Origin: an uncultured Clostridia bacterium
Lineage (GTDB): Bacteria > Bacillota > Clostridia > TANB77 > CAG-508
NCBI GenBank assembly: GCA_934167755.1
Contig: CAKPLT010000001.1
Location: 161,753 to 225,752, forward strand
Reading direction: 5' to 3'
Length of the DNA: 64,000 nucleotides
Shown one piece after another: positions 25,702 to 44,275 of the stretch. The notes below the pieces were generated by a model. That model saw only the letters and a program-made list of their open reading frames with translations. It was not told the origin of the DNA and did not search any database. A program made the position numbers and the translations under genes. Numbering within the stretch: position 1 is the stretch's first letter; every line of letters starts with the position of its first letter.

Positions 25702-25777
25702 TGGTTGCGGGAGTAGGACTCGAACCTACGACCTTTGGGTTATGAGCCCAACGAGCTGCCAACTGCTCCATCCCGCG
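25702..25777 (-). tRNA. Initiator tRNA-fMet (anticodon CAT)
   Basis: Reverse complement cgcgggatggagcagttggcagctcgttgggctcataacccaaaggtcgtaggttcgagtcctactcccgcaacca has the C1xA72 mismatch and three G-C pairs in the anticodon stem, the initiator hallmarks. Confidence 0.88.
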
Positions 25778-26076: not shown

Positions 26077-27210
26077 GTGTTACAGTTTCAAACAAAATCT
26101 ATTGACATCTGCCGGATTAGTAAAATACTTGTAAAATATAATATTAAGTCTAGTATAACTGATTCGGTAATTACTTTAGAGGGCGATATTTCTGATGATT
26201 TGCTTATGAAACTTTGTGATGCCATTAACATCAATAGTGTTCAAAACTTCATAAGTCAAGAACCATTATTTGATCTTAATGAAACATCATTTTTTAAAAA
26301 TGAAAAAAATACTCAAACTGAAGTTAGGGAAAAACCTACTTTATCACATAATACTTCCGAATATGATTTAATATATTCTAAAGTTAAGCGTGGTGAAGTA
26401 TATTTATGTGATTATGGAAAACCTTATGGTTGTGAACAAGGACTTGAGAGATATGCTATTATTGTACAAAATGATGAGGGGAATTTATATTCTCCGACAA
26501 CCATTGTAATTGCTTGTACTTCAAGAACCAAAAAAAGCCTTCCTGTTCATGTAGAGAGCAGATTTTCTTCTAGCAATATGGTTGATTATGACTTGAAAAG
26601 AGTAGGAACTGCTAAAAGTGTAATTATGGCAGAGCAAATTCGAACAATTGACAAAAGTAGACTTCGCAAATATATGGGAATGTTGACAGAAGAGTTTATG
26701 GAAGAAATTGATGAAAAGCTTAACATTTCATTACAGTTAAGTCAAAAAGTAAAAATCATAGAAAAAAAGGTGTATGTTGAAAACACACCCAAAGTTATGG
26801 TTGCTCCTAATGAACCAAAAGTACGAAAAGATGTGAATAAGGTTCAAATTCAGTTATTGTCATTTGTTGATATAAATGAACTTTTGAAAATTTCACAAAA
26901 GCATGTTACAGATGAAGTTAAAGCTGAGAAAATTTTAGAATTATTCGGTTTTGATTTTAATAAAAAAGGCGTTTCATATGTACTTAAAGCAATTATTACT
27001 TCTCCCAAAGATGCTTACTTTAACCTTGAAACCTTATCAGAGAGTATTTCTAAAGAAGAAGGCATTGATAAAGAAGAAGTAAAGCGCTTAATCGTTGCAA
27101 GAATAAAAGAAACTTTTGGATTTAGAAAAGCTCCAACAGTGGATTTTATTCGTTTAGTTAATAGTTTTTTGTTAAAACAGGAGGATGACAATGAAGAAAT
27201 TAACTTTTAA
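26077..27210 (+). CDS. 377-aa protein with an internal PemK/MazF-like (Kid toxin fold) domain flanked by N- and C-terminal extensions. GTG start with AAGGAGG RBS
   Basis: RGEVYLCDYGKPYGCEQGLERYAIIVQND...TTIVIACTS...IMAEQIRTIDKSRLRKYMGMLTEEFMEEIDEKL aligns by eye with the Kid/MazF core (RGEIW...GHEQQGTRPVLIV...PVTS...CDQPRTID...L..V). Confidence 0.6.
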   Translation: MLQFQTKSIDICRISKILVKYNIKSSITDSVITLEGDISDDLLMKLCDAININSVQNFISQEPLFDLNETSFFKNEKNTQTEVREKPTLSHNTSEYDLIYSKVKRGEVYLCDYGKPYGCEQGLERYAIIVQNDEGNLYSPTTIVIACTSRTKKSLPVHVESRFSSSNMVDYDLKRVGTAKSVIMAEQIRTIDKSRLRKYMGMLTEEFMEEIDEKLNISLQLSQKVKIIEKKVYVENTPKVMVAPNEPKVRKDVNKVQIQLLSFVDINELLKISQKHVTDEVKAEKILELFGFDFNKKGVSYVLKAIITSPKDAYFNLETLSESISKEEGIDKEEVKRLIVARIKETFGFRKAPTVDFIRLVNSFLLKQEDDNEEINF

Positions 27211-28507
27211 AGTAAGTTCACAAAAAGAAGGATCATTAATTTCATTAATAAAAGAGGTTGATAAAATATCTTGTCGAATTTCTTTTGATTTTGAAAACGG
27301 TATCGTAGCAGTTAAAAATGTCAATGATATTATGATTGATTCAGTTATAGAATTAGTCGATAATTATTACACTATTCTTGGTGTTGATATTGATAACACA
27401 CTTGAAGAAAACACAGAAAACACGACAACAGCTGTTTCATCAGAATCTTCTTCTGATGTATCTAATAATACAGTAGAAACAGATGAAACTGTAAATGAGA
27501 TCAAGCCAACAGTTTTAGAACCTCAAACAGAAGATGATTTAATCATCAAAAAGGTTGAATTCCAGAACGAATATCTTGAAGGATTAATCAATAAACTTGT
27601 AAAAACTATATCTTGGGCAATGTTCAAAATGAATATTTCTGAAAAAGAAGCTGGTGATTACATTTATACTACTATAAATGAGATTTCTATGAGATACAAT
27701 AAAAAAGAATGTATCGATTTTGCAATCGGAGATATTGTTGACTGTACCTATGGTGTTCATTTACCAGGAGAAATCAATGGTGGGCATGTTTCTGCAATAG
27801 TATGCGATATTTCTCACAATTCTATGGCATATTTAGTACCTATTACAAAGATACAGACAGACATTGTATCTAATTCTTATTTAATTTTCAAAGCTCCAGA
27901 AGATGTAGTTTATGAAAATGATTATTACAAAGGTGGTACTGCTTTATTAGATAAGGCAAAATATGTTCGTGCTGAAAGATTCAATGCAGTAATTGGTAAA
28001 ACAACTCCTGCTTTCTTTGAGAAAATTCTAAGAAAGTTGGCAAATACCTTTGACTTTACAAAAAAATTTGCAGAAAGAGTTGAAGAAGAAAGTGAAAAAA
28101 CTGTAATTACAACCCAAAATACTGAAGAAGTAGTTACAGAATCTTCTAAAAAGTATAATAATGTTGAAAATGCTTTGTTGGAAGTTATTGGATTTGCTTT
28201 CGACAAACTTGACCCTTCCAAAAAGGTTGAAGACCAGGTAGAAAGCTTTTTAGAGGATATTGGTATGGTATCTAACAAAATGATTACACAGTCCTTTATT
28301 ATTGCTTGTGATATAAAAAAAATCAAGTATGACAATGTTGCTCTTAGGTTGCATGAAGAGTTTTCAGAAGTAGATGAGGAAACTATCAAAAATACCTTAA
28401 AAGAAACATTTAAAAATTGGTTAGAAAAGTATCCTATTTTAGCAGAAAAATGCCCTAAAATTTCTATTATATATATGCTTAAATTATTTGCTAAGAAATT
28501 TGCATAA
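27191..28507 (+). CDS. 438-aa paralogue: N-terminal domain, acidic linker, PemK/MazF-like domain, and a C-terminal domain shared with the preceding protein. Overlaps the upstream gene by 20 nt
   Basis: GDIVDCTYGVHLPGEINGGHVSAIVCD...LVPITK...RAERFNAVIGKTTPAFFEKILRKL is MazF-like. C-terminal EVIGFAFDKLD parallels ELFGFDFNKKG of the upstream protein. Confidence 0.5.
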   Translation: MKKLTFKVSSQKEGSLISLIKEVDKISCRISFDFENGIVAVKNVNDIMIDSVIELVDNYYTILGVDIDNTLEENTENTTTAVSSESSSDVSNNTVETDETVNEIKPTVLEPQTEDDLIIKKVEFQNEYLEGLINKLVKTISWAMFKMNISEKEAGDYIYTTINEISMRYNKKECIDFAIGDIVDCTYGVHLPGEINGGHVSAIVCDISHNSMAYLVPITKIQTDIVSNSYLIFKAPEDVVYENDYYKGGTALLDKAKYVRAERFNAVIGKTTPAFFEKILRKLANTFDFTKKFAERVEEESEKTVITTQNTEEVVTESSKKYNNVENALLEVIGFAFDKLDPSKKVEDQVESFLEDIGMVSNKMITQSFIIACDIKKIKYDNVALRLHEEFSEVDEETIKNTLKETFKNWLEKYPILAEKCPKISIIYMLKLFAKKFA

Positions 28508-28580: not shown

Positions 28581-28670
28581 AGAAATCTCAAAAAAACAAG
28601 TAAAGTATTGATATTCTGAGAAAAATTAGATATAATAACCATTAATAAATATATATAAAAGGTGAAATAT

Positions 28671-30140
28671 ATGAACGATGAATGCAAAAGAAAATGTCAA
28701 ATATTTACTCCAAAGGAAAATGTCATACAATTATTAGACTGGGTAGGATATAAAAAAGATTTATATGGAAAAAAAATAATTGAAAATTCATGTGGAGATG
28801 GACAAATATTAACTGAGATAGTAAATAGATATATTAAAGAATGCAAAAAAAATAATATAAATTCAAAACAAATAAAAAAAGGGTTAGAAAATGATATATA
28901 TGGTGCAGAAATAGATGCTGTTCATTATAGAAAATGTATCAACAATCTAGATGATATAGCGAAAAAAAATGATATTAATGATGTAAGGTGGAATATTATA
29001 CAAAAAGACATATTACAAGAAAAATTAGAAATTAAATTTGATTATGTAGTAGGAAATCCACCATATATAAAATATAAATTGTTAGATAAGGAAACTAGAG
29101 AATTTGTAAGGAAAAATTTCGAAGTATGTTCAATAGGAAAATTTGATTATTGCTATGCATTTATTGAACATGGAATAAAGAACTTAAATGAAAATGGAAA
29201 AATGGCGTATTTAATACCTAATAGCATATTTAAAAATGTTTTTGCACAACAATTAAGAAACTATATAAAAGCCAATTTAACAGATATATATGACTATACG
29301 ACAGAAAAATTGTTTACAAAGAAAAACCTTGAAAGCATAGAAAAAGATATACTTACATCTTCAGCAGTTATTATAATAGATAAAAGTAAAAAAACAAGAA
29401 ATATTAAATATCATGATATTGTAAATAAACAAGAAATAAAAATTTCGAAGAATAATTTAAATGGTAAGTGGATATTTAATAAAAATGGTGAAGAAGAGCA
29501 ACAAAATAGAACTGCAAAATTTGGGGATTATTTTAAAGCTTCAAATACAATTGCAACATTATATAATAAAGCATTTGTTATAAATCATTACCAAGATGAA
29601 GAAGAATATATAGTAACAGAAGACAATTATAAAATAGAAAAAGCAATATTAAAAGAAGCAGTCAGTCCAAGAAGTTTAAACAGTAATACAGCGGAAAAAA
29701 TTATATTTCCATATTATTTTAAGAATGGAGAATTAAAAAAATACACAGAAGAAGAAATCAAAACAAAATTTCCAAATGCATATAAATATCTAGAAATACA
29801 TAAAGAAAAATTATTAAAAAGAAAATCAGATACTAGTGCAAAATGGTATGAATATGGGAGAAGTCAGGCTATTAGTCAATCAAATGAAAAAAAACTATTA
29901 TTATCAACAGTAATAACAAAAGAAGTAAAAGTATATGATTTGTCAAATGAAACAATACCATATTCAGGAATATACATTACAAGTGAAGAAGAAAATCTTG
30001 ATAGAGCTAAAGAAATATTGGAAAGTGAAGAGTTTTTACAATATGTAAAAAACATAGGAATAAATGCTAGTGGAGAATCCATTAGAATAACAAGTAAAGA
30101 TATTAATAATTTTGAATTTTATATTGGAGAAAATATATGA
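28671..30140 (+). CDS. N6-adenine DNA methyltransferase, gamma class (M.TaqI/Eco57I-like; FxGxG before NPPY, C-terminal TRD)
   Basis: Motif I IENSCGDGQIL and motif IV VVGNPPY. Start chosen at MNDECKRK with an AAGGTG RBS. The stop overlaps the next start (ATGA). Confidence 0.82.
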   Translation: MNDECKRKCQIFTPKENVIQLLDWVGYKKDLYGKKIIENSCGDGQILTEIVNRYIKECKKNNINSKQIKKGLENDIYGAEIDAVHYRKCINNLDDIAKKNDINDVRWNIIQKDILQEKLEIKFDYVVGNPPYIKYKLLDKETREFVRKNFEVCSIGKFDYCYAFIEHGIKNLNENGKMAYLIPNSIFKNVFAQQLRNYIKANLTDIYDYTTEKLFTKKNLESIEKDILTSSAVIIIDKSKKTRNIKYHDIVNKQEIKISKNNLNGKWIFNKNGEEEQQNRTAKFGDYFKASNTIATLYNKAFVINHYQDEEEYIVTEDNYKIEKAILKEAVSPRSLNSNTAEKIIFPYYFKNGELKKYTEEEIKTKFPNAYKYLEIHKEKLLKRKSDTSAKWYEYGRSQAISQSNEKKLLLSTVITKEVKVYDLSNETIPYSGIYITSEEENLDRAKEILESEEFLQYVKNIGINASGESIRITSKDINNFEFYIGENI

Positions 30141-32392
30141 GCAAGAAAATAAGATTTAATGTAAATGCATATACTGCAAAATTAATAGGAAGAGAAAATG
30201 TTTCAAACTTAGAAGGTGCAATCCTTGAATTAGTAAAAAATACATATGATGCTGATGCTACAAAATGTATATTATATTATGACGAAGAAAATAAAACATT
30301 ATATATTATGGACAATGGTACAGGAATGTCAGAAGAAATTATTGAAAAACACTGGATGACAATAGGAAATTCTTCTAAAAGTACAAACTTTATTACCCAA
30401 AGTGGTAGAGTGCAAACAGGAGCAAAAGGGATAGGAAGATTTGCATTAGACAGAACTGGTGATACATGTGTGATGTACACAAAAACTCAAAAAAATGATG
30501 ACATAATACAATGGAAAGTTGATTGGAGAGATTTTGACAGAAAAGAAAACTTAACAGATATAACTGCAGAAATTGACTATGTTAAAGGAAAGTTATATGA
30601 CAATGTACAAGGAAATAAATATTTAAATGAAATTTTAAAAACACATTTTAGTGGTACTGGAACAATTTTTAAAATTACAAATTTAAGAGAAGAATGGAAT
30701 ATTGACTTAATAAAAAATATAAAGAAAAGCTTAGCAACACTTATTCCACCAGATATAGAAAACGAATTTGCTATATATTTTTTCTATGAAGATCAAAGTG
30801 AAAAAGAGGCATTAATCATATCAGATAATATAGATGCATATGATTATAAAATTGAATTCAATGTATTAGATGATGGAAAAACAATTATAAAATTAGATAG
30901 AAACGAATTTGACTTTAAAGACAAATTAGATGAAATAATTCAAAAAGCAGGATTTAAAGAGGAAGACAAAGATTATTTTTTAGGAAAAGAAAAAATTATA
31001 AATACTACATTAGAAGCATTGATAGGAAATAAAGATGCAGAAGAATTAGGAAAATTTGATGGAACTATATATTTTAATAAAATTACAGTAACAAAAGAAG
31101 ATGCGAAGAAATACTATTATAAAGACATAACAGGAAGAAAAAACTTTTCTGATATATTTGGTGGAATAAAATTATATAGAGACAATTTTAGAGTAAGACC
31201 ATATGGAGAAAAAGAATCATCTAGTTATGACTGGTTACTTTTAGGAAATAGACATGCAAAATCACCTGCTGCTATAAGCCATCCAACAGGAAAGTGGAGA
31301 GTTTCAACAGACCAAGTATCAGGTGTAATAAATATATCAAGAATGAATGTGAACTTACCAGATCAGGCAAATAGACAAGGAATAGTAGAAACAAAAGAGT
31401 TCAGACTATTAAAAGAAATACTTATAGATATTATTTCCGAATTTGAGGAAGATAGGCAATATGTTGGTAGGAAATTAAACAAATTATATTATGAAGAAAA
31501 TGAAACACAACAAACTCAAGAAGAAGTAAGAAAAAAGGCAAAGAAGCAACAAAAAGATAAAGAAAAAAATAGTGATAATGATGATTATAAAGTAGACGCA
31601 GAAAAAGTACATAAAGTTTTTGAGGAAAAAGATGAACAAATAAGAGACTTACAAGACGAAAACAGAATGTTGAGAAATTTGGCTACAACAGGAATAGTAG
31701 TAAATCAATATATACATGAAACAAAAGAATCAGTTAATAATGTGGGAACGAATATTATGGTAGTGAAAGAATTATTAATTGAAGATAGAGACATAGAAAA
31801 AGCAATAGAGAAAATAACAGATGCACAAAAATATGTTGAAACAATGAATTCTTGGTATGATGTTACATTAGGTTCAATAAGAAGAGATAAGAGAACAATG
31901 AAATATAATGATATTAATTCATTAATATCAACACAGATGAATTTATGGAAAAAAGTATTAGAAAGACAAAATATTGATATAATATATACAGGAAGAGATA
32001 TTCCAGAAATAAAATGTTTCCCATATGAAATAGAAAGTATAATTAGTAATTTAATAGCTAATAGTGTATATGCATTTAAAGGGATAAAAGACAAAAAAAT
32101 ATATATTAATTTATTGGAAACAGATCATGGTATAAAAATCGAATACCATGATACAGGATCTGGGCTAATATCGGAATATAAAAAACAGCCAGAGAAGATA
32201 TTAGAAGCATTAGAAACAAGTAAAAAAAATCGTATAGGTGAAACTGTAGGAACTGGAATGGGAATGTGGATAATATCTGGAATTGTTAATAATTATAATG
32301 GAGATATAGACTTAAGCAAAAACTTAAAAGAAGAGACAGGATTCTATATAGACATTAATTTGAAAGCATTGAAAAGAAATGAAGGTGAATAA
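30137..32392 (+). CDS. Two-module ATPase: N-terminal MORC/MutL-like GHKL ATPase, and C-terminal histidine-kinase core (candidate H-box + HATPase_c)
   Basis: N-terminal ELVKNTYDADAT (N box), DNGTGMS (G1), GAKGIGRFA (G2). C-terminal NQYIHETKES (candidate H-box), IISNLIANSVYAF (N box), YHDTGSGLI (G1), GTGMGMWII (G2). Confidence 0.65.
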   Translation: MSKKIRFNVNAYTAKLIGRENVSNLEGAILELVKNTYDADATKCILYYDEENKTLYIMDNGTGMSEEIIEKHWMTIGNSSKSTNFITQSGRVQTGAKGIGRFALDRTGDTCVMYTKTQKNDDIIQWKVDWRDFDRKENLTDITAEIDYVKGKLYDNVQGNKYLNEILKTHFSGTGTIFKITNLREEWNIDLIKNIKKSLATLIPPDIENEFAIYFFYEDQSEKEALIISDNIDAYDYKIEFNVLDDGKTIIKLDRNEFDFKDKLDEIIQKAGFKEEDKDYFLGKEKIINTTLEALIGNKDAEELGKFDGTIYFNKITVTKEDAKKYYYKDITGRKNFSDIFGGIKLYRDNFRVRPYGEKESSSYDWLLLGNRHAKSPAAISHPTGKWRVSTDQVSGVINISRMNVNLPDQANRQGIVETKEFRLLKEILIDIISEFEEDRQYVGRKLNKLYYEENETQQTQEEVRKKAKKQQKDKEKNSDNDDYKVDAEKVHKVFEEKDEQIRDLQDENRMLRNLATTGIVVNQYIHETKESVNNVGTNIMVVKELLIEDRDIEKAIEKITDAQKYVETMNSWYDVTLGSIRRDKRTMKYNDINSLISTQMNLWKKVLERQNIDIIYTGRDIPEIKCFPYEIESIISNLIANSVYAFKGIKDKKIYINLLETDHGIKIEYHDTGSGLISEYKKQPEKILEALETSKKNRIGETVGTGMGMWIISGIVNNYNGDIDLSKNLKEETGFYIDINLKALKRNEGE

Positions 32393-33004
32393 ATGTATAA
32401 AATAGCATTAATAGATGATTGTAAGGACCAATATGAAAACTATAAATACAGGTTAGGAAAAAAAGGAATAGATTTGTTATTTATGGAATATAAAGAAGAT
32501 TATACAGAAATAATTGATTGGTTATTAGATAATCAAATACAATTTGTATTAATAGATTATAAGCTAGACTTACAATATGATTTTTGTGGTTCACAATTAA
32601 TGCAATATATTAATAATGCAATACCGGATTTACAATGTGTATTATTTACATCTAATACAGTTGATGATGATCTAGTAATGGACAGATTAAAAATAGATAA
32701 AAGTGTATTTAATACAGACGGAAAAGAATATGTGGAATTTATAGATACCATAAAACAAGCTGTAAATGTATTTGAAAAAAGAAAGAAAATGATGGAAGAA
32801 CATTATTTAAAGCTTAAAGAAAAAAAGGATAGTGGAAAAATTTCTGCTTTAGAAGAGGAAGAATTAGCAAGATATTATAAAATATTAAGTACTTATGGAA
32901 TTGTAGAAAAAATACCACAAGAAATGTTATCAACAAAGGTAGAAGAAAAAATCGATAAATTGATAAAAGAAGTAGAAGAATATTTAATAAATAAAAGAGG
33001 ATAG
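32393..33004 (+). CDS. Stand-alone receiver (REC/CheY-like) domain protein with a C-terminal coiled-coil tail
   Basis: KIALIDDC (acidic pocket), FVLIDYKLD (phospho-acceptor Asp position), CVLFTSNT (T/S), then K; starts 1 nt after the upstream stop. Confidence 0.5.
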   Translation: MYKIALIDDCKDQYENYKYRLGKKGIDLLFMEYKEDYTEIIDWLLDNQIQFVLIDYKLDLQYDFCGSQLMQYINNAIPDLQCVLFTSNTVDDDLVMDRLKIDKSVFNTDGKEYVEFIDTIKQAVNVFEKRKKMMEEHYLKLKEKKDSGKISALEEEELARYYKILSTYGIVEKIPQEMLSTKVEEKIDKLIKEVEEYLINKRG

Positions 33005-33005
33005 A

Positions 33006-33590
33006 ATGGAAAGAATACACGGAATAAAAACGATAAAAAGGAGAAAATATACAATAAGGAGAGACTATACTGAATGTAAAGATATTCTTGCAGAGGATTT
33101 TCAACAGATGTGTGGATATTGTGGAAAACATCGAAAAACATTACTTAAACAATTTCAAATAGATCACTTTGCACCACAAAGTAAATTCCCAGAAAAGAGA
33201 GACATATATAAAAATTTAGTATTAGCTTGCCCTCAATGTAATAGATTAAAATCAGACAAATGGATTGGTAATAATCCAGAAGTAAGCAATGATGGAAAAA
33301 GGGGATTTGTAGATCCTGCAACAGAAGAATATGATCAACACCTATATAGAGAAGATGATGGAAAAATTATGTATAAAACTGAAGTCGGAAAATATATGTA
33401 TGATTTACTTAAATTTAACATTAGAAGAACTGATTTAATTTGGAAAATTATTAAATTGAGTGAATTGAAAGAAGAATTGAAGAGCTTTTTGAGAGATAAT
33501 CCGGACGAAGAAGGGAATAGAAAATTTGTAGAAATACAGATGCAATTAGATGAACTACTAGACTATATTACATATAATGAAAGAGAATAA
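33006..33590 (+). CDS. HNH endonuclease
   Basis: CGYCGK...QIDHFAPQS...NLVLACPQCNRLKSDK HNH/Zn-finger motif; begins 1 nt after the REC gene. Confidence 0.78.
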   Translation: MERIHGIKTIKRRKYTIRRDYTECKDILAEDFQQMCGYCGKHRKTLLKQFQIDHFAPQSKFPEKRDIYKNLVLACPQCNRLKSDKWIGNNPEVSNDGKRGFVDPATEEYDQHLYREDDGKIMYKTEVGKYMYDLLKFNIRRTDLIWKIIKLSELKEELKSFLRDNPDEEGNRKFVEIQMQLDELLDYITYNERE

Positions 33591-33784
33591 TAGCTATTTA
33601 AACTGTAATTTCAATAGGAGCTAATGTTTGGGTATGTGTTATGTACATTTGGAAAGAATAGATTTAAATGGCGACCATATAGATAATAAAAATAAATGTG
33701 ATTTAATCTGTTAACTGGTATTGTAACATTTGGACAATTATTGAGTAGAGTTACTATACAATAAGGTTGAGTGGATGAATGTGG

Positions 33785-33797
33785 GGGCTCATAACCC
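33785..33797 (+). other. 13-nt exact match to the tRNA-fMet anticodon stem-loop (gggctcataaccc), in a roughly 400-bp non-coding gap; possible att-core remnant
   Basis: Identical to positions 26-38 of the tRNA-fMet sense sequence (gene at 25702-25777); a GC-rich 13-mer is unlikely by chance in this AT-rich window. Confidence 0.35.
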
Positions 33798-34016
33798 GTA
33801 TACCAATAATTTGATACTAGACTCGGAAAATATAATAAAATGAAGCATTTGCTAGATTTTGGCAGGTGCTTTTTTCTTGCTTTTTCAAGTGAAAATGTCA
33901 CACTTTGGTCACAGTTAGGGCGAGAAAAGACTGAGTTAGACAAGTTTTAACAAGGAATGTATTTGAATTATTCACAGGAAGTGGTATAATTGGGGTAAAT
34001 GAAAGGAGAGATTTAT

Positions 34017-34490
34017 ATGGATATAACAATTGATGTAGATAATTATAAGTTAAATGTAAGAGCAGCAGGAGTAATGATACATAATGGCAAAATTTTGGTT
34101 CATAGAAATATTAATTCTGACCACTATGCATTAATTGGAGGAAGAGTAGAAATAGGAGAAAATTCAGCTGATACAATTAAAAGAGAAATTAAAGAAGAAT
34201 TAGGAAAAAACATAGAAATAACAGGATATATATCAACAATAGAAAACTTTTTTGAGATGAAAGGTTCAAAATACCATGAAATAATGTTTGTACATAAAAT
34301 AGAATTTACAAATGAAGATGATAAAAAAATAGAATATACAATGAAAAATATTGAAGGAAAAGATTATTTGCAATATGAATGGATAGAGATAAATAAAATT
34401 GATGAGTATCCACTATTGCCAAGAGATGTAAAAGAAGTTTTAAAAGAAAATAAATTTCCAATACATAAAATAAATAATGATTTGAAATAA
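34017..34490 (+). CDS. NUDIX hydrolase
   Basis: NUDIX box GGRVEIGENSADTIKREIKEELG. Start chosen at MDITID with an AAAGGAGAG RBS. Confidence 0.85.
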   Translation: MDITIDVDNYKLNVRAAGVMIHNGKILVHRNINSDHYALIGGRVEIGENSADTIKREIKEELGKNIEITGYISTIENFFEMKGSKYHEIMFVHKIEFTNEDDKKIEYTMKNIEGKDYLQYEWIEINKIDEYPLLPRDVKEVLKENKFPIHKINNDLK

Positions 34491-34502
34491 AACAGGTGAA
34501 AT

Positions 34503-34886
34503 ATGAAAGTATTAACAATAAAACAACCTTGGGCAACATTAATAATGCAAGGAGATAAAAGATTTGAATTTAGAAGTTGGAAAACTAAATATAGAGGAGA
34601 TTTATTAATACATGCAGGAAAAGGAATAGATAAAGAAGCAATGAAAAGATTAGCAAAATATATTACAAAAGATATGCCAACTGGAAAAATATTAGGAAAA
34701 GTAACATTAGTAGATTGCATAAAATGTGATGATAATTTTAAAGAAATGTGCTTAAAAGAAAATAAAGATGTCTATGCTAAAAGTACTTTTGTAGAAAAAT
34801 ATGCATGGCAGCTGGAGAATGTAGAAGTATTTGATGAACCGTTAGAGGCAAAAGGAAAATTGAGTTTGTGGGAGTATGATATATGA
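34503..34886 (+). CDS. ASCH domain protein
   Basis: MKVLTIKQPWATLIMQGDKRFEFRSW...LLIHAG is the canonical ASCH N-terminus. Confidence 0.8.
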   Translation: MKVLTIKQPWATLIMQGDKRFEFRSWKTKYRGDLLIHAGKGIDKEAMKRLAKYITKDMPTGKILGKVTLVDCIKCDDNFKEMCLKENKDVYAKSTFVEKYAWQLENVEVFDEPLEAKGKLSLWEYDI

Positions 34887-35461
34887 AAAATATAGAAAGA
34901 TATTATAAAAATACAACAGATGCAAAACCTAATTATACTATAAAAAAATTTATTGAATTGAAAATCAAACCAGGAAATGCAATTGAACTTGGATGTGGAG
35001 CAGGAAGAGATACGGTATGTTTAATAAAAAATGGATGGAATGTAATGGCAATAGATAAAGAAAATGTTGAATCAAGAATTGTAGCAAAATTAGAAGCAAA
35101 AGAATTAAAACAGTTTAAATTTTTAAAGCGAAAATTTGAGGAGATTGAATTAGAAAATAATAATTTGGTAGTTGCTAATTTTAGTCTTCCATTCTGCAAT
35201 AAAAATGATTTTAAAAAATTATGGAATAAAATAGATGATAGTATTTTAAAAGATGGATATTTTGTTGGTAATTTCTTTGGAGATAACGATGAATGGAAAA
35301 ATACAAAAGAAGAAATGATGTTCTTAACAAAAGAACAGGTAATAGAATTATTTGAAAATTTTGAAATTATAGAGTTTAATGAAGTAGAAAAAGATGATTT
35401 TACCGGTTTAGGGAAAATGAAACATTGGCATATATTTAATGTAATAGCAAAGAAAATTTAG
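34883..35461 (+). CDS. Class I SAM-dependent methyltransferase (TehB-like)
   Basis: ELGCGAGRDTVCLIKNGWNVMAIDK SAM-binding motif I. Confidence 0.72.
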   Translation: MKNIERYYKNTTDAKPNYTIKKFIELKIKPGNAIELGCGAGRDTVCLIKNGWNVMAIDKENVESRIVAKLEAKELKQFKFLKRKFEEIELENNNLVVANFSLPFCNKNDFKKLWNKIDDSILKDGYFVGNFFGDNDEWKNTKEEMMFLTKEQVIELFENFEIIEFNEVEKDDFTGLGKMKHWHIFNVIAKKI

Positions 35462-36560: not shown

Positions 36561-39314
36561 ATGTCTAAAGAATATGAAAGCGAGGCAATGCTTGAAGAAA
36601 AATTAATAAAACACTTAGAATTATTAGGTTATACTAGGATTAATCTAAAAAATCTAGATGATGTAAAAGAAAATTTTAGAAAACAAGTAAACAAGCATAA
36701 TATAGATGAATTAAAAGGAAAAGAACTATCAGATAGAGAATTTGATAGACTATATACAATGATTACTGGAAAAGGTGTTTATGCCAGTAGCAAAATTTTA
36801 AGAGAAAAACAATGTTTAGAAAGAGATAATGGAGAAAAAATATATATAGAATTATTTAATACCAGACAATGGTGTAAAAACATATACCAAGTTTCCAACC
36901 AAATAACCAGTATTACAGGAGAAAGAGAAACAAGATATGATGTAACACTTTTTATTAACGGATTACCACTAATTCAAATAGAATTAAAAGCACGTGGAAA
37001 AACATTAAAAGAAGCAGTAAATCAAATTGAAAGATATAGAAGGACTTCATATAAAGAATTATATAAATTTATTCAGATTTATGTTGTAAGTAATGGAGTA
37101 AATACAAAATACTTTGCAAATACAGATGGAGAAATAAACTTTGGATATACATTCTTTTGGACAGATGAAGAAAACAACAGAATTAGTAATCTAAGTGAAT
37201 TTTCAATGTATTTCTTAGAAAAATGTTTTGTATCTAAAATGATTGCTAGATATATGGTTATTAATGAAACAGACAAACAATTAATGGTAATGAGACCATA
37301 TCAAGTATATGCAGTAGAAGCACTAGTAAATCAGGCTAAAGAAACTAGTAATAATGGATATATATGGCATACTACAGGTTCAGGAAAAACATTAACATCC
37401 TTCAAAGCAAGTCAAATTTTAGCAAATGAACCAGATATTAAACAAGTCTTTTTCTTAGTAGATAGAAAAGATTTAGATACGCAGACATTCGATGAATTCA
37501 ATAAATTTGAGCCAGGTTCAGTAGACTTTACAAATAGTACATATAAATTAGTTAAAAATATACAAGATTCAACAAAGCCATTAATCATAACTACTATTCA
37601 AAAAATGGCTAATGCTATAAATAGTCCAAGATATTCAGAATTAATGGAAAAATACAGAGATGAAAAGGTTGTGTTTATTATAGATGAATGTCATAGAAGC
37701 CAATTTGGTGATATGCATAAAGCTATAAAAATGCATTTTAATAGAGCTCAATATTTTGGATTTACAGGTACACCAAGATTTCCGGAAAATAAAAGTCAAG
37801 ATGGGAGAACAACAGCAGATATATTTGAAAAATGTTTACACAAATATTTATTAAAAGATGCAATAAATGATGGAAATGTATTAGGATTTTCAGTTGATTA
37901 TTATAAAACAATAGATGCTAATTTAGATAATATAGATTATGTTGAAGTTGAAGGTATAAACACTGAAGAAGCTTATATGGCTGATGAAAGAATAAACAAC
38001 ATTACTGAAGGAATACTTACAATGCATCCATTAAAAACTAATGATATGACATATACTGCTATATTTGCAACTGCTAGTATACCACAATTAGTAAAATATT
38101 ATGATTGTTTTAAAACTAAAAAAACAGATTTGAAAATAGCAGCAATATTTACATATGGACCAAATGAAGATTATGAAGGAAAAGATGAACTTTCATGTCA
38201 AAGTTTAGAAAGAATTATAAATGATTACAATAAAATGTTTGATACCAACTATTCAGTAAATGCATTCGATGGATATTTTAAAGATGTTTCTAAAAGAGTA
38301 AAGAATGCAGAAATAGATATTTTAATTGTAGTAAATATGTTTTTAACTGGATTTGATAGCAAAAAATTAAATACATTGTATGTGGATAAAGCTTTAAAAT
38401 ATCATGATTTAATACAAGCTTTTTCAAGAACAAATAGAGTAGAAAAAGCAACAAAAACGCAAGGAAATATAGTAAGTTTTAGAACAACGAAAAAAGCTGT
38501 AGATAATGCTATAAGGATTTTTTCTGATACAAGTGATCCAGATGAAGTTTTATTAAAACCATATGAATATTATAAAGAAAAATTTATTGAAATAGCAAAA
38601 AAATTAAAAGAAACTGCTCCGACAGTAGAATTTGTCGATGCAATACAATCAGAAGAAGAAAAGAAAAAATTTATTGTTATATTTAGAGAGTTAACTAAAA
38701 TATTAATAAAACTTAGAATATTTAGAGAATTTAAATTTACAGAAGAAGAAGTTTATATTTCACATCAGGAATATTTAGATTATAAGAGTAAGTATTTAGA
38801 TTTAGCTACAGGTAAAGAATCACAAAATAAGGTTAGTATATTAAATGATATTGATTTTGAATTAGAATTAATGTACACAGATAAAATAAATGTAGACTAT
38901 ATTTTAAATTTAATGAGATCAATCGATTTAACTGATAAAGAGCAGACAGATAAAGATATTAAGGACATTTTAAATAAATTGGAAAATGCAGATAATAAGG
39001 ACTTAAGGCTAAAATCTGATTTGATTAGAGAATTCTTAAATAAAATTATTCCAACTCTTAATGAAAATGATTCAGTTGAAGAAAATTATTATAACTTTAT
39101 GGATGAACGCCGACACAAAGAAATTGAAGATATTGCCAAGAAATATGATATTGATATAAATCTATTAAATGATATCATAGGGGAATATGAATATTCTGGA
39201 ATCTTAGATACAGGTAAAATAAAAGAAAAAATAGATAAGCCTTTGATAGAAAAAGTTAATATAACAAAGTCAATTAAAGAATTTATAGTAAATTTAATAA
39301 ATAGATTCAAATAG
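36561..39314 (+). CDS. hsdR: Type I restriction enzyme R subunit
   Basis: N-terminal PD-(D/E)xK nuclease (RYDVTLFINGLPLIQIELK); helicase motifs HTTGSGKT, IIDECHRSQ, FTGTP. Confidence 0.9.
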   Translation: MSKEYESEAMLEEKLIKHLELLGYTRINLKNLDDVKENFRKQVNKHNIDELKGKELSDREFDRLYTMITGKGVYASSKILREKQCLERDNGEKIYIELFNTRQWCKNIYQVSNQITSITGERETRYDVTLFINGLPLIQIELKARGKTLKEAVNQIERYRRTSYKELYKFIQIYVVSNGVNTKYFANTDGEINFGYTFFWTDEENNRISNLSEFSMYFLEKCFVSKMIARYMVINETDKQLMVMRPYQVYAVEALVNQAKETSNNGYIWHTTGSGKTLTSFKASQILANEPDIKQVFFLVDRKDLDTQTFDEFNKFEPGSVDFTNSTYKLVKNIQDSTKPLIITTIQKMANAINSPRYSELMEKYRDEKVVFIIDECHRSQFGDMHKAIKMHFNRAQYFGFTGTPRFPENKSQDGRTTADIFEKCLHKYLLKDAINDGNVLGFSVDYYKTIDANLDNIDYVEVEGINTEEAYMADERINNITEGILTMHPLKTNDMTYTAIFATASIPQLVKYYDCFKTKKTDLKIAAIFTYGPNEDYEGKDELSCQSLERIINDYNKMFDTNYSVNAFDGYFKDVSKRVKNAEIDILIVVNMFLTGFDSKKLNTLYVDKALKYHDLIQAFSRTNRVEKATKTQGNIVSFRTTKKAVDNAIRIFSDTSDPDEVLLKPYEYYKEKFIEIAKKLKETAPTVEFVDAIQSEEEKKKFIVIFRELTKILIKLRIFREFKFTEEEVYISHQEYLDYKSKYLDLATGKESQNKVSILNDIDFELELMYTDKINVDYILNLMRSIDLTDKEQTDKDIKDILNKLENADNKDLRLKSDLIREFLNKIIPTLNENDSVEENYYNFMDERRHKEIEDIAKKYDIDINLLNDIIGEYEYSGILDTGKIKEKIDKPLIEKVNITKSIKEFIVNLINRFK

Positions 39315-39326
39315 AAGGAGAAAAAA

Positions 39327-40901
39327 ATGAATGTAGCAGAAAAACAAAATAAGCAACAATCAGAATTACACTCTAAATTATGGAGTATGGCAAATGATTT
39401 AAGAGGAACAATGGATGCTTCTGAATTTAAAAATTATATATTAGGATTAATATTTTATAGATTTTTATCAGAAAGATTAGTAAGTTACATAGAAGAAAAA
39501 CTTTTAAATAAAGATAAACTAACATATGAACAAGCATGGAAAAAAGAAGAATATAGGGAAGCAATAATTGAAGATCTAACAAAAGATAGTGATGTAGGAT
39601 ATGTTATTGAGCCAGAATATTTATTTTCTAATTTGATAAAATTAGTAGAAACAGGTGATTTTGATATATCAATATTACATAAAGCAATTAATAAAGTTTC
39701 AGAATCAACACTTGGAAATGCTAGTCAACATGATTTTGAAAATTTGTTTGAAGATATGGACTTAAGTTCTTCAAAATTAGGTAGAGGTGAAAAAGAAAGA
39801 AGTAAGTTAATAGGAACAATTATGCAAAAGATAAATGATATAGATTTTGCATTTGAAGATACAGAAATTGATGTTTTAGGAGATGCATATGAATATCTAA
39901 TAGGACAATTTGCAGCAAGTGCAGGTAAAAAAGCAGGAGAATACTATACACCACAACAAGTTTCAAACATACTTGCTAAAATAGTAACAATGGATATTAA
40001 AGACTTAAAGAATGTATATGATCCAACTTGTGGTTCTGGTTCATTATTGTTAAGAGTAGCAAGACAAAAAGATGTAAAAGTAAGTGCGTTTTATGGACAA
40101 GAAAAGGTTAGTACGACATACAACTTGGCTAGAATGAATATGTTACTTCATAGAGTTCCTTTTAATAGATTTGACATATATAATGGAGATACTTTAGAAG
40201 ATCCTTGTGAAGAACATATGAAAATGAGATTTCAAGCGATAGTTGCAAATCCACCATACTCTGCTCAATGGTCAGCAGACCAAAAATTTTTAAATGATGA
40301 GAGATTCAGCAATTATGGTAGATTGGCACCAAAATCAAAAGCAGATTATGCATTTATTCAACATATGATTTATCTATTAGATGATAATGGAACAATAGCA
40401 GTAGTATTACCACATGGTGTATTATTTAGAGGAGCAAGTGAAGGGACAATAAGAAAATATTTAATAAAAGATAAAAATTATTTGGATGCAGTAATAGGAT
40501 TACCAGCTAATATATTCTACGGAACTTCTATTCCTACTTGTATATTAGTATTTAAAAAGTGCAGAACAAGTGATAATGTATTATTTATTGATGCCTCAAA
40601 GGACTTTGAACCTGGAAAAAATCAGAATAGATTAAGAGATGAAGATGTAGACAAAATTATAAATACATATAAAAATAGAAAAGAAATAGAAAAATATTGT
40701 CACTTAGCTACTATGGATGAAATAAAAGAAAATGATTACAATTTAAATATACCACGCTATGTAGATACATTTGAAGAGGAAGAAGAAATAGATTTAGATG
40801 CTGTTCAAGTAGAATTAGAAAAAATAGATGAAGAAGACAAAAAAGTAACTGAAGAACTTAATAAGTATTTAAGAGAGTTGGGATTAAAAGAATTAAAATA
40901 G
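39327..40901 (+). CDS. hsdM: Type I restriction-modification methyltransferase M subunit
   Basis: LGDAYEYLIGQFA...GEYYTP..., YDPTCGSGSLLL (motif I), NPPYS (motif IV). Confidence 0.95.
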   Translation: MNVAEKQNKQQSELHSKLWSMANDLRGTMDASEFKNYILGLIFYRFLSERLVSYIEEKLLNKDKLTYEQAWKKEEYREAIIEDLTKDSDVGYVIEPEYLFSNLIKLVETGDFDISILHKAINKVSESTLGNASQHDFENLFEDMDLSSSKLGRGEKERSKLIGTIMQKINDIDFAFEDTEIDVLGDAYEYLIGQFAASAGKKAGEYYTPQQVSNILAKIVTMDIKDLKNVYDPTCGSGSLLLRVARQKDVKVSAFYGQEKVSTTYNLARMNMLLHRVPFNRFDIYNGDTLEDPCEEHMKMRFQAIVANPPYSAQWSADQKFLNDERFSNYGRLAPKSKADYAFIQHMIYLLDDNGTIAVVLPHGVLFRGASEGTIRKYLIKDKNYLDAVIGLPANIFYGTSIPTCILVFKKCRTSDNVLFIDASKDFEPGKNQNRLRDEDVDKIINTYKNRKEIEKYCHLATMDEIKENDYNLNIPRYVDTFEEEEEIDLDAVQVELEKIDEEDKKVTEELNKYLRELGLKELK

Positions 40902-40905
40902 AAAA

Positions 40906-40935
40906 AGGATTACATTTTGAAGTGTAATCCTTTTT
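40906..40935. terminator. Bidirectional terminator hairpin between convergent hsdM and hsdS
   Basis: aggattaca/tgtaatcct stem with T-runs on both strands. Confidence 0.65.
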
Positions 40936-41479
40936 AGATAAACATTTGCTGTAGTAGAGATTTTTTTAAAATATTTAAGTTATTTAAAGTATTTTTTTGC
41001 AAATTTATTTTTCTATCCAAATTTGACAAAATTTTTGCAATTTTTCTTTGATTCTCTAAACATGGAAAAACATCAGTATGTTTTAAAAAATCTTCTACAT
41101 TTACAGACATTCTTTCATAAACAGTTCCTTGTTCATATTTTCTAACTTTATTAATAAAATCAATTCTAGTAAAATAATATTTACAAAAAGATACATCCAT
41201 GATATTAGGATTAATTTCTAAAGTAACATATATTGGGGAAAAAATAGCACTTCCATATTCGTTAATACAAATAACACCAAATTTTAAATTGGCAGGATTA
41301 TAACATAAGTCATTAAGAAGAGTAATTTTATATTCTTTATTATTGGACATAACTAGAAAATCTCTATTGTATCTATCGGATTTATCCAAAATCCCATCTT
41401 TTGATAAAGTTACATGAGGATATTCTAATCCTTTTTCAGAATAGATCTTTCTTTCTTTCAAAAATTTACTAATTTGCAT
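40934..41479 (-). CDS. hsdS: HsdS distal half (TRD2 + C-terminal conserved helix). Out of frame with the upstream TRD1 ORF because of the T8 tract
   Basis: Ends LNILKKSLLQQMFI. The frame stays open upstream of the ATG to 41560 and reads ...KKTGVCQKLFQSIKDD..., the HsdS central conserved region. Confidence 0.75.
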   Translation of the reverse strand: MQISKFLKERKIYSEKGLEYPHVTLSKDGILDKSDRYNRDFLVMSNNKEYKITLLNDLCYNPANLKFGVICINEYGSAIFSPIYVTLEINPNIMDVSFCKYYFTRIDFINKVRKYEQGTVYERMSVNVEDFLKHTDVFPCLENQRKIAKILSNLDRKINLQKNTLNNLNILKKSLLQQMFI

Positions 41480-41495
41480 TTTAAATGTAGTTTTA

Positions 41496-42119
41496 TCATC
41501 TTTTATAGATTGAAATAATTTTTGACATACCCCTGTTTTTTTTATATATCTTAAGGGCTTCTATTTTTCTCTGTTGTAGTTCTATTTTTTTGCTTAAAAA
41601 TTCTAATAATTTAGATACTTTTTCTTGTTCTTCAATTGTGGGCAAATCAATATTTATATTTTTTATTTTTTCACCATATAAATGAACAATAGAATCTCCT
41701 TGAGCATATCTGGCAATAACAATCCTTTTTTTGTTAGATAATAAATAGCTTAAATATTTTCCATTTTGAAATTTTGGTCTCAATACATTTAAATCTCCAC
41801 CAAGAATTACATGATCTTGCAATATACAAGTTGATGTAGAAATATCTAATGCAGTTTCGCCACTACATGGAATTAAAACGTCGTTTATTTTGCTATGAAA
41901 AAGATTTTTATCACTTCTATCAGTATAACTTATAACTTTATCTGTTATTTCATCATACTGTGTATACAACTCTCCATATAGAATACAAGGAAACTTTCCG
42001 TTTTCTTTAATATCAGATTTAGATAATGTGTTTCCTTTATAGAAATCTACTATATCATTTAATTTATATGTATTATATTCATCTTTAAATTCTTTAAATC
42101 TTAGCTTTGGTACTAGCAA
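41496..42119 (-). CDS. hsdS: HsdS proximal half (TRD1 + start of central conserved region), terminating 13 codons after the T8 tract
   Basis: MLVPKLRFKEFKDEY... typical HsdS N-terminus; ...LPTIEEQEKVSKLLEFLSKKIELQQRKIEALKIYKK then frameshifted NRGMSKIISIYKR*. Confidence 0.8.
   Translation of the reverse strand: MLVPKLRFKEFKDEYNTYKLNDIVDFYKGNTLSKSDIKENGKFPCILYGELYTQYDEITDKVISYTDRSDKNLFHSKINDVLIPCSGETALDISTSTCILQDHVILGGDLNVLRPKFQNGKYLSYLLSNKKRIVIARYAQGDSIVHLYGEKIKNINIDLPTIEEQEKVSKLLEFLSKKIELQQRKIEALKIYKKNRGMSKIISIYKR
41536..41543 (-). repeat. Homopolymeric T8 (A8 on the coding strand) tract inside hsdS; removing 1 nt fuses TRD1 and TRD2 in frame
   Basis: Seen in the sequence. With 7 A the reading is ...KIYKKTGVCQKLFQSIKDD... 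in a single frame. Confidence 0.8.
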
Positions 42120-42196
42120 TTTTTCACCTTCATTCTGTCCTTTAGTTTAACCTTAAAGGTCAAGAAAAGTATATCATAAAAAATTTAAAATTGGAA

Positions 42197-43192
42197 TTAT
42201 TTTAGAATTTTTTCTTGAAAATTTTTACAAATTAAATTTATACATTTCTTTTTTTGAGACATTTGAGGATGCACATATAAATTTAAAGTAATATTTACAG
42301 TAGCATGTCCTAATAATTCACTAACCGTCTTATAATCTACACCTAATTTGATACAATTAGTTGCAAAAGTGTGCCTAAGGCCATGAAAATTAATTTTATC
42401 TATTTGGGCTTTTTTTGAAATTCTTTCAAAATATCTCCTATATGTTCTTGGCTCTATCCATTTGTTGTTACAAGATAATATATAATCATTTGAATTGGTT
42501 TTATATTTCTTTAATTCGTATGCAAATTCTTTATTAAGTGGTATTTCTCTTTCGGCATTGTGAGTTTTTGGATTTGTTATTATAACTTTTGAAGCATTAA
42601 TGTGTGTATCTTTAATATATACCCTTTGAAGGGTTTTATTTATATGTAAAATATTGTTTTTAAAATCAATATCCTTCCATTGTAATGCACATAGTTCGCC
42701 TATTCTAATTCCAGAATATAAAGTCAACAAAATTCCTAAACTTTTAATAGACTGATTCTTTAAAATGTAATTTGTTAATTTATCTTGATTTTGCTTTGAG
42801 AGAGTATATATCTTATCTTTTATATTAGTTTTCGGATAAATAAAATCAAGGCTTACACTTTCAATTAATCCTTCCTTAGTTGCAGCTTTTAGACTGCTTT
42901 TTATTATAGCAATTATATCCCTAATTGTTTTGCTTGATAGTCCTCCTGAATTATCCAATCTACCATTTTTATATTTTTCTAATAAAAATTTTTGAATTAT
43001 CTTATTATTTAATTCATTAAGATAATATTTTCCTAAATCTGGTACTATATGGTTAGAAATAATATTAGAATAATTTGCATATGTGGATTCTTTAATATAA
43101 TCTTTTTTATATGATAGCCAATCCCAAATCCAATATTCATATAATATTTTGTTTTTTGCTTTAAATAGCATCTTTTTCACCTCCATATACAT
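42197..43192 (-). CDS. Tyrosine site-specific recombinase (phage integrase family) directly upstream of hsdS
   Basis: C-terminal catalytic region ...INFHGLRHTFATNCIKLG...LLGHATVNITLNLYVH (R...H-x-x-R...Y). Confidence 0.85.
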   Translation of the reverse strand: MYMEVKKMLFKAKNKILYEYWIWDWLSYKKDYIKESTYANYSNIISNHIVPDLGKYYLNELNNKIIQKFLLEKYKNGRLDNSGGLSSKTIRDIIAIIKSSLKAATKEGLIESVSLDFIYPKTNIKDKIYTLSKQNQDKLTNYILKNQSIKSLGILLTLYSGIRIGELCALQWKDIDFKNNILHINKTLQRVYIKDTHINASKVIITNPKTHNAEREIPLNKEFAYELKKYKTNSNDYILSCNNKWIEPRTYRRYFERISKKAQIDKINFHGLRHTFATNCIKLGVDYKTVSELLGHATVNITLNLYVHPQMSQKKKCINLICKNFQEKILK

Positions 43193-43248
43193 TATACAAC
43201 GAGTGTCTTTTTAGTATATTAAGGTTAAAAAAAGGACTAATTCAAAAA

Positions 43249-43818
43249 ATGTATCAGAAAAATTATAATAATAAAATAAAAATGGAAAAGATTCTTATAC
43301 AAAAATCTATAAGAAATACTAATGATGAAAATTATAATGTATATAGCGTTAGCAACAAAGATGGTTTTATATTACAAACAGAACAGTTTAAAGATAGAAT
43401 CGTAGCAAGTGAAGATACTAAAAATTATAAAGTGGTAGAAAAAGATGATTTTGCATATAACCCGGCACGTATAAATGTGGGATCTATTGCAAGAATGAAA
43501 AAAGATACAAAGGGCATAATAAGTCCTATGTATATATGTTTTAAATGTAATGAAGAAATACTACCAGAATATTTAGAATATTTTTTTGAATCATCTAAAT
43601 TTACATATGAAATGAATAAAAGGCTTGAAGGAAGCGTAAGAATGTGTTTATCATACGAATCAATGTTAAATATACCGATAGAATTACCAAATAAAAATGA
43701 ACAAGAAGAAATATCAAAAATTCTTAACAATTTAAGTGATAAAATAAAATTAGAAGAAGAAAAGTGGATTAAATTAAAGAAATTAAAGAGAGGATTATTA
43801 CAGAAAATGTTTATATAG
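43249..43818 (+). CDS. hsdS: Half-size HsdS (single TRD + C-terminal conserved helix) in opposite orientation to the main hsdS
   Basis: YNVYSVSNKDGF...FAYNP...GSIA and a C-terminus LKKLKRGLLQKMFI nearly identical to the hsdS C-terminus. Confidence 0.72.
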   Translation: MYQKNYNNKIKMEKILIQKSIRNTNDENYNVYSVSNKDGFILQTEQFKDRIVASEDTKNYKVVEKDDFAYNPARINVGSIARMKKDTKGIISPMYICFKCNEEILPEYLEYFFESSKFTYEMNKRLEGSVRMCLSYESMLNIPIELPNKNEQEEISKILNNLSDKIKLEEEKWIKLKKLKRGLLQKMFI

Positions 43819-43891
43819 AGTAGCAAAAAAGCTACTCTATATTGCTATATATAAAAAAATGTTATAGAATGGCAATAAGAGGTAGATAAAA

Positions 43892-44254
43892 ATGTATAGT
43901 GAAATAGTAAAAAAATATTTTGAAAATCCAACAAATTTAGGGACAATTGAAAATGCTGATGCAATAGGAATAATAGAAAATGAAATTTGCAGTGATATAA
44001 TAAAAAAATATATAAAAGCAGGTGAACAAAAAAATATCATAGAAGATGCAAAATTTGAAGCTAAAGGATGTCCTCCAGTTATAGCATCATGTTGTGTGGT
44101 AACAGAAATGATTAAAAAAATGGAAATAGAAAAAGCTAAAACCTTAACTGCAAATGAAATAATTAATAAATTAAATGGTTTGCCAAAAGAAAAAGAACAT
44201 TGTGCAGAGTTAGTTATAAAAACATTAAGAAAGGCAATAGAAAATATAAATTGA
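43892..44254 (+). CDS. NifU/IscU-like Fe-S cluster scaffold domain protein
   Basis: Cys ligands in ENEICSD, KGCPPVIAS, HCAELV at IscU-like spacing. Confidence 0.55.
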   Translation: MYSEIVKKYFENPTNLGTIENADAIGIIENEICSDIIKKYIKAGEQKNIIEDAKFEAKGCPPVIASCCVVTEMIKKMEIEKAKTLTANEIINKLNGLPKEKEHCAELVIKTLRKAIENIN

Positions 44255-44255
44255 A

Positions 44256-44274: not shown

Positions 44275-44275
44275 T

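Follow-up and report, generated by a model that had tools for sequence, protein, structure and literature searches.

The closest described relative of the locus analysed here is Ambrosia, a system that comprises AbrR (an XRE-type, HipB-like protein), AbrA (an N6-adenine methylase), AbrB (a kinase/HSP90-like ATPase), AbrC (a REC protein) and AbrD (an HNH protein). Ambrosia shields Pseudomonas aeruginosa PAO1 from siphophages and Pbunavirus. Its defence is lost upon point mutation of any of its genes, AbrB N40A, AbrC D60A and AbrD H60A each abolishing it, and host toxicity was not seen (van den Berg et al., bioRxiv 10.1101/2025.09.30.679545). The 537 reported instances, all in Gammaproteobacteria, were found with high hidden Markov model (HMM) cut-offs, i.e., bit-score thresholds of 100 for AbrA, 500 for AbrB, 150 for AbrC and 200 for AbrD (bioRxiv 10.1101/2025.09.30.679545). 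In addition, proteins combining HATPase_c_3, HEF_HK and HATPase_c domains have been reported in pairs with Response_reg_2 genes beside restriction-modification (R-M) genes (Bellieny-Rabelo et al., 2021, PMC8011034); these pairs are mostly linked to C5 methylases and Vsr, and were interpreted as descendants of the paraMORCs of Iyer et al., 2008 (PMC8011034; PMC2292703). A predicted HATPase+REC system also appears in the DefensePredictor paper, in the legend of a figure. Here we describe a four-gene operon in a 64,000-nucleotide (nt) stretch of contig CAKPLT010000001.1 from an uncultured Clostridia bacterium, the whole of which is referred to as the window. By its sequence, the operon belongs to the Ambrosia family as a new and distant member, without AbrR and with a different methylase. 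The original prediction, made from the letters of the window, had taken this architecture to be undescribed; that claim does not hold, as Ambrosia has the same gene order and similar kinase-receiver pairs were reported in 2021 (PMC8011034). The operon and its candidate transcription signals, in window positions, are as follows.

28608-28636, + strand: promoter-like site TTGATA-17-TATAAT, 11/12, a consensus match only
28671-30140, + strand: AbrA-like gamma-class N6-adenine DNA methyltransferase, 489 amino acids (aa)
30137-32392, + strand: AbrB-like soluble paraMORC-histidine kinase, 751 aa
32393-33004, + strand: AbrC-like receiver protein, 203 aa
33006-33590, + strand: AbrD-like PtuB-type HNH nuclease, 194 aa
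33842-33872, + strand: terminator-like hairpin with a T-run, about 250 nt past the HNH stop, a pattern match only

To compare the operon with Ambrosia, sequences and gene order (by CDS numbering) were taken from Table S1 of the preprint, and AbrB was compared through its residues 1-399. In BLASTP the kinase aligned collinearly with this part of AbrB at 29% identity over 420 aa (E 2e-50), and the HNH protein aligned with AbrD at 33% identity (E 1e-20). The pairwise match of the receiver to AbrC was weak (BLASTP E 0.005); aligned as a family profile, it matched AbrC with an hhalign probability of 92.9% (E 3.6e-7), in an alignment of 165 columns that takes in a portion of the tail. The residues that inactivate Ambrosia when mutated, N40, D60 and H60, map to Asn35 of the kinase, Asp55 of the receiver and His54 of the HNH protein, all three of which are invariant in the family alignments. 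The methyltransferase occupies the same operon position as AbrA and shares 19% identity with the Pseudomonas protein over 217 aa (E 0.009); from sequence, its role and class would be those of AbrA, and because the identity is only 19% we assign it to another gamma-class subfamily. Identity of the window proteins probably falls below the HMM cut-offs of the Ambrosia authors (500 bits for AbrB). Membership in the Ambrosia family is well supported by these alignments, and a defence role would follow from that membership.

The open reading frame (ORF) list of the window places the four genes on the + strand at 28671-33590. The methyltransferase starts at ATG 28671, which is preceded by an AAAGGTG ribosome-binding site; the longest ORF begins at GTG 28662. 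The methyltransferase and kinase genes overlap in an ATGA at 30137-30140 with GGAG upstream, the TAA of the kinase is followed directly by the ATG of the receiver at 32393, and the TAG of the receiver is separated by 1 base from the ATG of the HNH gene at 33006, so that direct reading of the junctions bears out the tight packing described in the original prediction. The promoter-like site is the best in the region, located after a hairpin/T-run 3' of the upstream gene and before the methyltransferase start. The terminator-like hairpin is the sole such site found in the region and is the probable 3' end of the transcription unit, as judged by its pattern. No regulator-like ORF (≥20 aa) was found between the upstream gene and the methyltransferase, nor 3' of the HNH gene.

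The original prediction proposed that conservation of the neighbourhood be checked in other genomes. For the kinase, a word index gave more than 4,330 relatives of about 750 aa, and approximately 610 clusters at 50% identity were obtained at E≤1e-30; 80 related genome loci were retrieved. These come from Clostridia, Paenibacillus, Streptococcus, Haemophilus, Bacteroidota, Gastranaerophilales, Brachyspira, Deferribacteraceae, a deltaproteobacterium, a Microgenomates bacterium of the Candidate Phyla Radiation (CPR) and Methanocorpusculum. The order kinase-receiver-HNH is kept contiguous in nearly all 80 loci, with median gaps, calculated on the 61 distinct loci, of 3 nt between kinase and receiver and 4 nt between receiver and HNH gene; these three genes are thus co-conserved across phyla, with the methyltransferase found either up- or downstream. 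Close relatives (81-86% kinase identity) have the same four genes in different neighbourhoods, and the cassette is also present on a Bacteroides plasmid. We read the cassette as self-contained and horizontally mobile. A search of the phage collection gave no full-length kinase homologue. The sole archaeal copy among the retrieved loci (L046 8064-13084, a Methanocorpusculum metagenome-assembled genome (MAG), OY781078.1) has its kinase split into four ORFs, a truncated receiver and a fragmented downstream methylase, and because its genes are broken we read it as a decaying, horizontally acquired cassette.

Of about 65 related loci, at least 12 have a small gene for an XRE-type helix-turn-helix (HTH) protein immediately 5' of the cassette and on its strand; there is none in the window or in most loci. 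These genes take two conserved forms, one of 98-107 aa before the methylase in Bacillota and one of 66-69 aa before the kinase in Bacteroidota (examples are L016 5831-6127, L019 6211-6507, L053 7664-7873 and, in L072, L076 and L079 alike, 7790-7990). These upstream genes are likely counterparts of AbrR or of C-proteins.

The domain assignments of the original prediction were recovered in Pfam (Eco57I 3e-20 with the NPPY motif, HATPase_c_3 2e-20, HATPase_c 4e-14 and HNH 1e-11). In the kinase, HATPase_c_3 spans residues 25-145 and HATPase_c residues 632-742. The protein is laid out as a GHKL ATPase with a transducer-like middle domain (residues ~1-415), long coiled helices (420-581) and a CA domain (~589-745), and the H-box His527-Glu528 lies in the coiled helices (His527 codon 31715-31717). 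Across 19 homologues (alignment A1) the invariant residues of the C-terminal part are His527-Glu528, Asn638/Asn642, Asp672-x-Gly-x-Gly (Gly674, Gly676) and Gly705-Gly709, while those of the N-terminal Bergerat fold are Glu31, Asn35 (codon 30239-30241), Asp59-x-Gly-x-Gly and Gly95-Gly100. The features of a classical two-component kinase are thus present, i.e., a DHp His-Glu H-box and N, G1 and G2 boxes. No Pfam DHp model, including HisKA, was matched, even by the isolated region at E≤10, and the histidine-kinase call rests on the invariant residues and the modelled fold. The AlphaFold2 (AF2) model of the kinase has a predicted local distance difference test (pLDDT) of 73.5 and a predicted template modelling score (pTM) of 0.46. 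In Foldseek its N-terminal half matched the MORC2-DNA complex, the SMCHD1 ATPase module, Hsp90/HtpG and MORC3 over ~500 columns, and its C-terminal part matched the cytoplasmic DHp and CA cores of HK853 and ZraS over ~240 columns. The protein is therefore a soluble ATPase of the MORC/paraMORC type, with a full class I kinase core fused to it. The earlier proposal of a MORC-like GHKL N-terminus joined to a kinase core is thus supported by the Pfam ATPase matches, the invariant residues and Foldseek, with HisKA itself unmatched.

The receiver scored 19 bits against Pfam Response_reg, which is below the cut-off of 30.2. Its AF2 model (pLDDT 82, pTM 0.71) has the (beta-alpha)5 fold of a REC domain, and among 29 orthologues including AbrC (alignment A2) Asp55 (codon 32555-32557), Thr86 and Gly66 are invariant and Asp8 is nearly so, in keeping with the acidic pocket, Asp and Thr of a classical two-component receiver. 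The original prediction of a 203-aa receiver with no output domain stands as to the receiver fold and Asp55/Thr86; the protein is not receiver-only, since a conserved helical C-terminal extension of ~90 aa follows. The tail is modelled as three helices (111-146, 152-167 and 183-202) with no strands, and is acidic, with a median net charge of -3 and an isoelectric point of 5.3 (n=77). The isolated tail gave no HTH match in the Pfam scan at E≤10 and no structural HTH match, and neither Pfam nor Foldseek revealed a recognisable DNA-binding or enzymatic output domain. The Foldseek matches of the whole protein were to REC domains only, full-length NarL-type regulators aligning at 9-16 Å root-mean-square deviation (rmsd). 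Homologues of the receiver are labelled 'HPt domain protein' by JGI; this label was rejected, as the helical tail is without a conserved His.

The HNH protein matched Pfam HNH at 1.4e-11 and contains a Cys36/Cys39/Cys75/Cys78 zinc knuckle and a helical C-terminal tail. His54, the catalytic residue (codon 33165-33167), Asn70 and Asn79 are invariant (alignment A5). Its best matches were PtuB models (PADLOC 2e-18, NCBIfam PtuB 3e-9), and the PADLOC match to mREase_IV was weak (4e-8). A search of the PDB with the single sequence gave no match, and PtuB was reached by the family profile only, which matched the solved PtuB chains of retron I-A and Septu at E 3e-5 to 8e-4. In Pfam and in the family alignment, no target-recognition or modified-base reader domain was seen in its 194 aa.

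The methyltransferase is Eco57I/MmeI-like: it contains the motifs FTP, GDG and NPPY, its C-terminal half is the target-recognition half, it matched PADLOC MTase_II at 1.5e-52 across residues 38-485, i.e., nearly its whole length, and its matches to PglX and DrmMI were weak. Among relatives it behaves as a module, being encoded upstream of the core, as in the window, or in some loci downstream of the HNH gene, belonging to at least three gamma-class N6-adenine subfamilies, and being uncoupled from the kinase phylogeny. Four loci at only 35% kinase identity carry methylases that are 51-57% identical, and six loci at 50% kinase identity carry the other methylase type, at ~25% identity. A methyltransferase gene is almost always present in the 80 loci, and loci with no phmmer match still encode a 'TGSFYTP' methylase of 515-575 aa 3' of the HNH gene. 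In a Ferruginibacter MAG (L074 7971-11486) the kinase-receiver-HNH block is apparently intact with no adjoining methyltransferase gene, and may be an orphan core or have its methylase encoded elsewhere. Swapping of target-recognition domains was considered among close relatives (76-86% identity) and rejected, with no swap seen and all four proteins diverging at similar rates. The exchange of methylases, together with an HNH protein that has no reader domain, suggests that the mark is read elsewhere.

We interpret the operon as an Ambrosia-family anti-phage/anti-plasmid cassette, in a four-gene form without the XRE regulator, in which the receiver directly gates the HNH nuclease by phosphorylation, and we assign this interpretation a probability of roughly 0.6. 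The MORC-like GHKL ATPase module would be the sensor, probably a clamp whose dimerisation is driven by ATP and which reads DNA that is invading or unmarked. The long coiled helices would relay its state to the kinase core (DHp/CA), leading to autophosphorylation of His527 and transfer of the phosphoryl group from His527 to Asp55 of the receiver. Through its acidic helical tail the receiver may then serve as an adaptor, switched by phosphorylation, to license or release the adjacent PtuB-type HNH nuclease, which would cut DNA without sequence specificity. The N6-adenine methyltransferase would set an epigenetic 'self' mark, or serve as a DNA-recognition module consulted by the sensor, and would be interchangeable between systems.

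Several observations favour direct gating. The receiver tail is all-helical, acidic and without an HTH match, and AbrC is likewise without one (no HTH, and no Pfam match at E≤0.01); the solved PtuB relatives were deposited as Septu and retron components; in a variant on Campylobacter plasmids, a C-terminal domain fused to REC takes the place of the separate HNH gene; and the window operon lacks a regulator gene, while its promoter-like site is close to consensus. From these observations we infer gating of the nuclease by the receiver at the protein level over transcriptional control. The Campylobacter variant is carried by conjugative plasmids of ~50 kb (41 records; e.g., C. coli pCCDM224L, NZ_CP017877.1, L086 4001-8454) as a related pair, a 732-aa HATPase_c_3 and histidine kinase protein and a 340-aa protein in which an N-terminal REC is followed by an unassigned 220-aa C-terminal domain; a divergent Dcm C5 methylase adjoins in convergent orientation, there is no HNH gene, and the pair resembles the HEF_HK/Response_reg_2 type (PMC8011034).

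Several points weigh against this interpretation. Identity to the validated system is low, at 29-33%, with the receiver detectable by profile only; the kinase model is of moderate quality on the pLDDT and pTM given above; and Ambrosia itself is known from a preprint only. In that preprint, phage grown on AbrA-expressing cells were still sensitive, which misfits a simple logic in which methylation protects, and mNeonGreen put in the place of abrA or abrD showed hardly any expression in the absence of phage and strong expression in infected cells (bioRxiv 10.1101/2025.09.30.679545). The Ambrosia authors moreover see a winged helix in AbrC and propose that it is a transcription factor phosphorylated by AbrB, with additional control by AbrR (bioRxiv 10.1101/2025.09.30.679545). 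Applied to the window, their model is that the phosphorylated receiver binds DNA and turns on silent methyltransferase and nuclease genes, the enzymes themselves being ungated. The infection-induced Pseudomonas reporters and the loss of defence in AbrC D60A speak for it, and the reporter induction together with the XRE-type genes upstream in at least 12 of about 65 loci means that transcriptional control is part of the biology of this family. As an account of the window copy we nonetheless consider it rather unlikely: the receiver tail is acidic and all-helical without wing strands or an HTH match, AbrC has no Pfam match, the structural neighbours share only REC, with NarL-type regulators at 9-16 Å rmsd, the window copy is without a regulator gene and its promoter-like site is near-consensus, and the reporter induction in Pseudomonas could come from AbrR alone.

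A second alternative is a suicide mechanism of Type IV character, in which the methyltransferase makes the nuclease target and the activated HNH protein cuts N6-methyladenine DNA of host or phage, so that infection is aborted. The weak mREase_IV match points this way, but the PtuB matches in PADLOC and the PDB are far better, the 194-aa HNH protein has no modified-base reader domain, and host toxicity was not seen in Ambrosia defence. The sensitivity of AbrA-grown phage has another possible source. By analogy with BREX, a methylase expressed by itself may be inactive, and this would account for the unprotected phage. We regard this second alternative as improbable. The last, that an ordinary Type II R-M pair of methyltransferase and HNH protein has had an unrelated two-component pair inserted by chance, could draw on the frequent clustering of R-M genes and regulators in defence islands and on the several unrelated systems of this island, but is effectively refuted by the co-conservation of kinase, receiver and HNH genes, which stay contiguous (gaps of 3-4 nt) in 61 distinct loci of different phyla while the flanks differ, and by the individual requirement for all four genes in Ambrosia. 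The original prediction of a restriction-like cassette under phosphorelay control is thus supported by the homology to Ambrosia; its equation of methyltransferase plus HNH with a plain R-M pair is doubtful, because the HNH protein is of the PtuB type without a recognition domain and because methylation by AbrA alone does not protect phage.

More broadly, and tentatively, the Ambrosia family may represent a large cross-phylum class of R-M-like systems in which a MORC-like DNA-clamp ATPase turns the state of DNA into His-Asp phosphotransfer and so, by way of a receiver-adaptor, switches on a Septu-type HNH nuclease post-translationally, with exchangeable methyltransferases setting 'self'; we hold this generalisation to be possible, and short of probable. 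If this is true, restriction-like immunity with protein-level gating by a phosphorelay would be seen for the first time, bacteria would provide a case of signalling by MORC ATPases, and a protein-level switch would bring restriction, two-component signalling and MORC-type ATPases into a single pathway. The Ambrosia architecture had been named and validated only in Gammaproteobacteria, and the same core is now seen across most major bacterial phyla and on plasmids. What is new here is this wider distribution, the facultative nature of the XRE regulator, the swappable methylase, and structural grounds for questioning a model of transcription only.

The surroundings of the operon are those expected from the original prediction, with a tRNA-Met at 25702-25777, a PemK-domain protein at 26077 and two Type I R-M loci. 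Just upstream, two + strand genes at 26077-28507 overlap by 26 nt. The product of the first has 377 aa, and its PemK/MazF toxin domain (residues 104-219) is flanked by a long extension at either terminus; that of the second has 440 aa and no family match, and the collinear similarity of the two is weak and non-significant. The two genes accompany the operon in contigs of the same species and not in relatives, and may form a separate toxin-based module. On the other side, a spacer of ~400 nt between the HNH stop and a NUDIX gene (33591-33998) contains no credible ORF and a promoter-like site at 33963-33990, and an Rfam scan of this spacer gave chance-level matches only. The genes directly 3' of the cassette, at 33999-35461, encode a NUDIX hydrolase, an ASCH (PUA-like) protein and a TehB-like S-adenosylmethionine (SAM) methyltransferase, and are linked to the cassette in same-species contigs only. 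At 36561-45460 lies a Type I R-M locus with hsdR (36561-39314), hsdM (39327-40901) and three short hsdS-like ORFs on both strands (40934-41479, 41496-42119 and 43249-43818), interleaved with two tyrosine recombinase genes (42197-43192 and 44276-45460); such a layout is that of a phase-variable locus with shuffling specificity. At 59099-62947 another hsdM-hsdS pair of Type I precedes an AAA_13 ATPase gene, and hsdR was not seen in the part examined.

Set against the known systems, the operon resembles Ambrosia in its gene order and in its components, i.e., an N6-adenine methyltransferase, a HATPase_c_3 and histidine kinase protein of ~750 aa, a REC protein of ~205 aa and a PtuB-like HNH protein of ~200 aa, with significant homology for three of the four (kinase, receiver and HNH protein). 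It differs in that the AbrR/XRE gene is absent, the methyltransferase comes from another gamma-class subfamily, and the host is low-GC and Bacillota-like, whereas Ambrosia was reported only in Gammaproteobacteria. The pairs of PMC8011034 share with it a soluble protein of HATPase_c_3, DHp and HATPase_c, a small divergent receiver-like neighbour and R-M genes around; their partners, however, are mostly C5 methylases and Vsr, not an N6-adenine methyltransferase and a PtuB-type HNH protein. PF19191 (HEF_HK) and PF19192 (Response_reg_2) were not matched by the window proteins at E≤0.1, or by isolated regions at E≤10, and the system is therefore a sister lineage of the same architecture.

As in Septu and retron I-A, the effector is a PtuB-clade HNH protein encoded beside an ATPase, which presumably restrains the nuclease; unlike in those systems, the operon has no PtuA-like ABC ATPase, and a GHKL/MORC-like ATPase-kinase and a receiver stand in its place, together with a methyltransferase. 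With Detocs (DtcA-DtcB-DtcC), to which the original prediction had likened the locus, it shares two-component parts used in defence and a small stand-alone receiver protein. It is unlike Detocs in its MORC-like sensor, in having a methyltransferase, and in its effector, which is encoded by a separate HNH gene without REC where Detocs has a nucleosidase fused to a receiver. PADLOC 2.0.0 is taken to include models for Detocs, and as neither the kinase nor the receiver was matched by any PADLOC model at E≤0.1, the resemblance is one of analogy. Finally, the Eco57I/MmeI-like gamma-class N6-adenine methyltransferase is reminiscent of BREX and Type IIG/L enzymes, and its weak PglX and DrmMI matches suggest a 'self' mark that is read by non-classical partners, in an operon from which, unlike in BREX, the core genes PglZ, BrxC and BrxL are absent.

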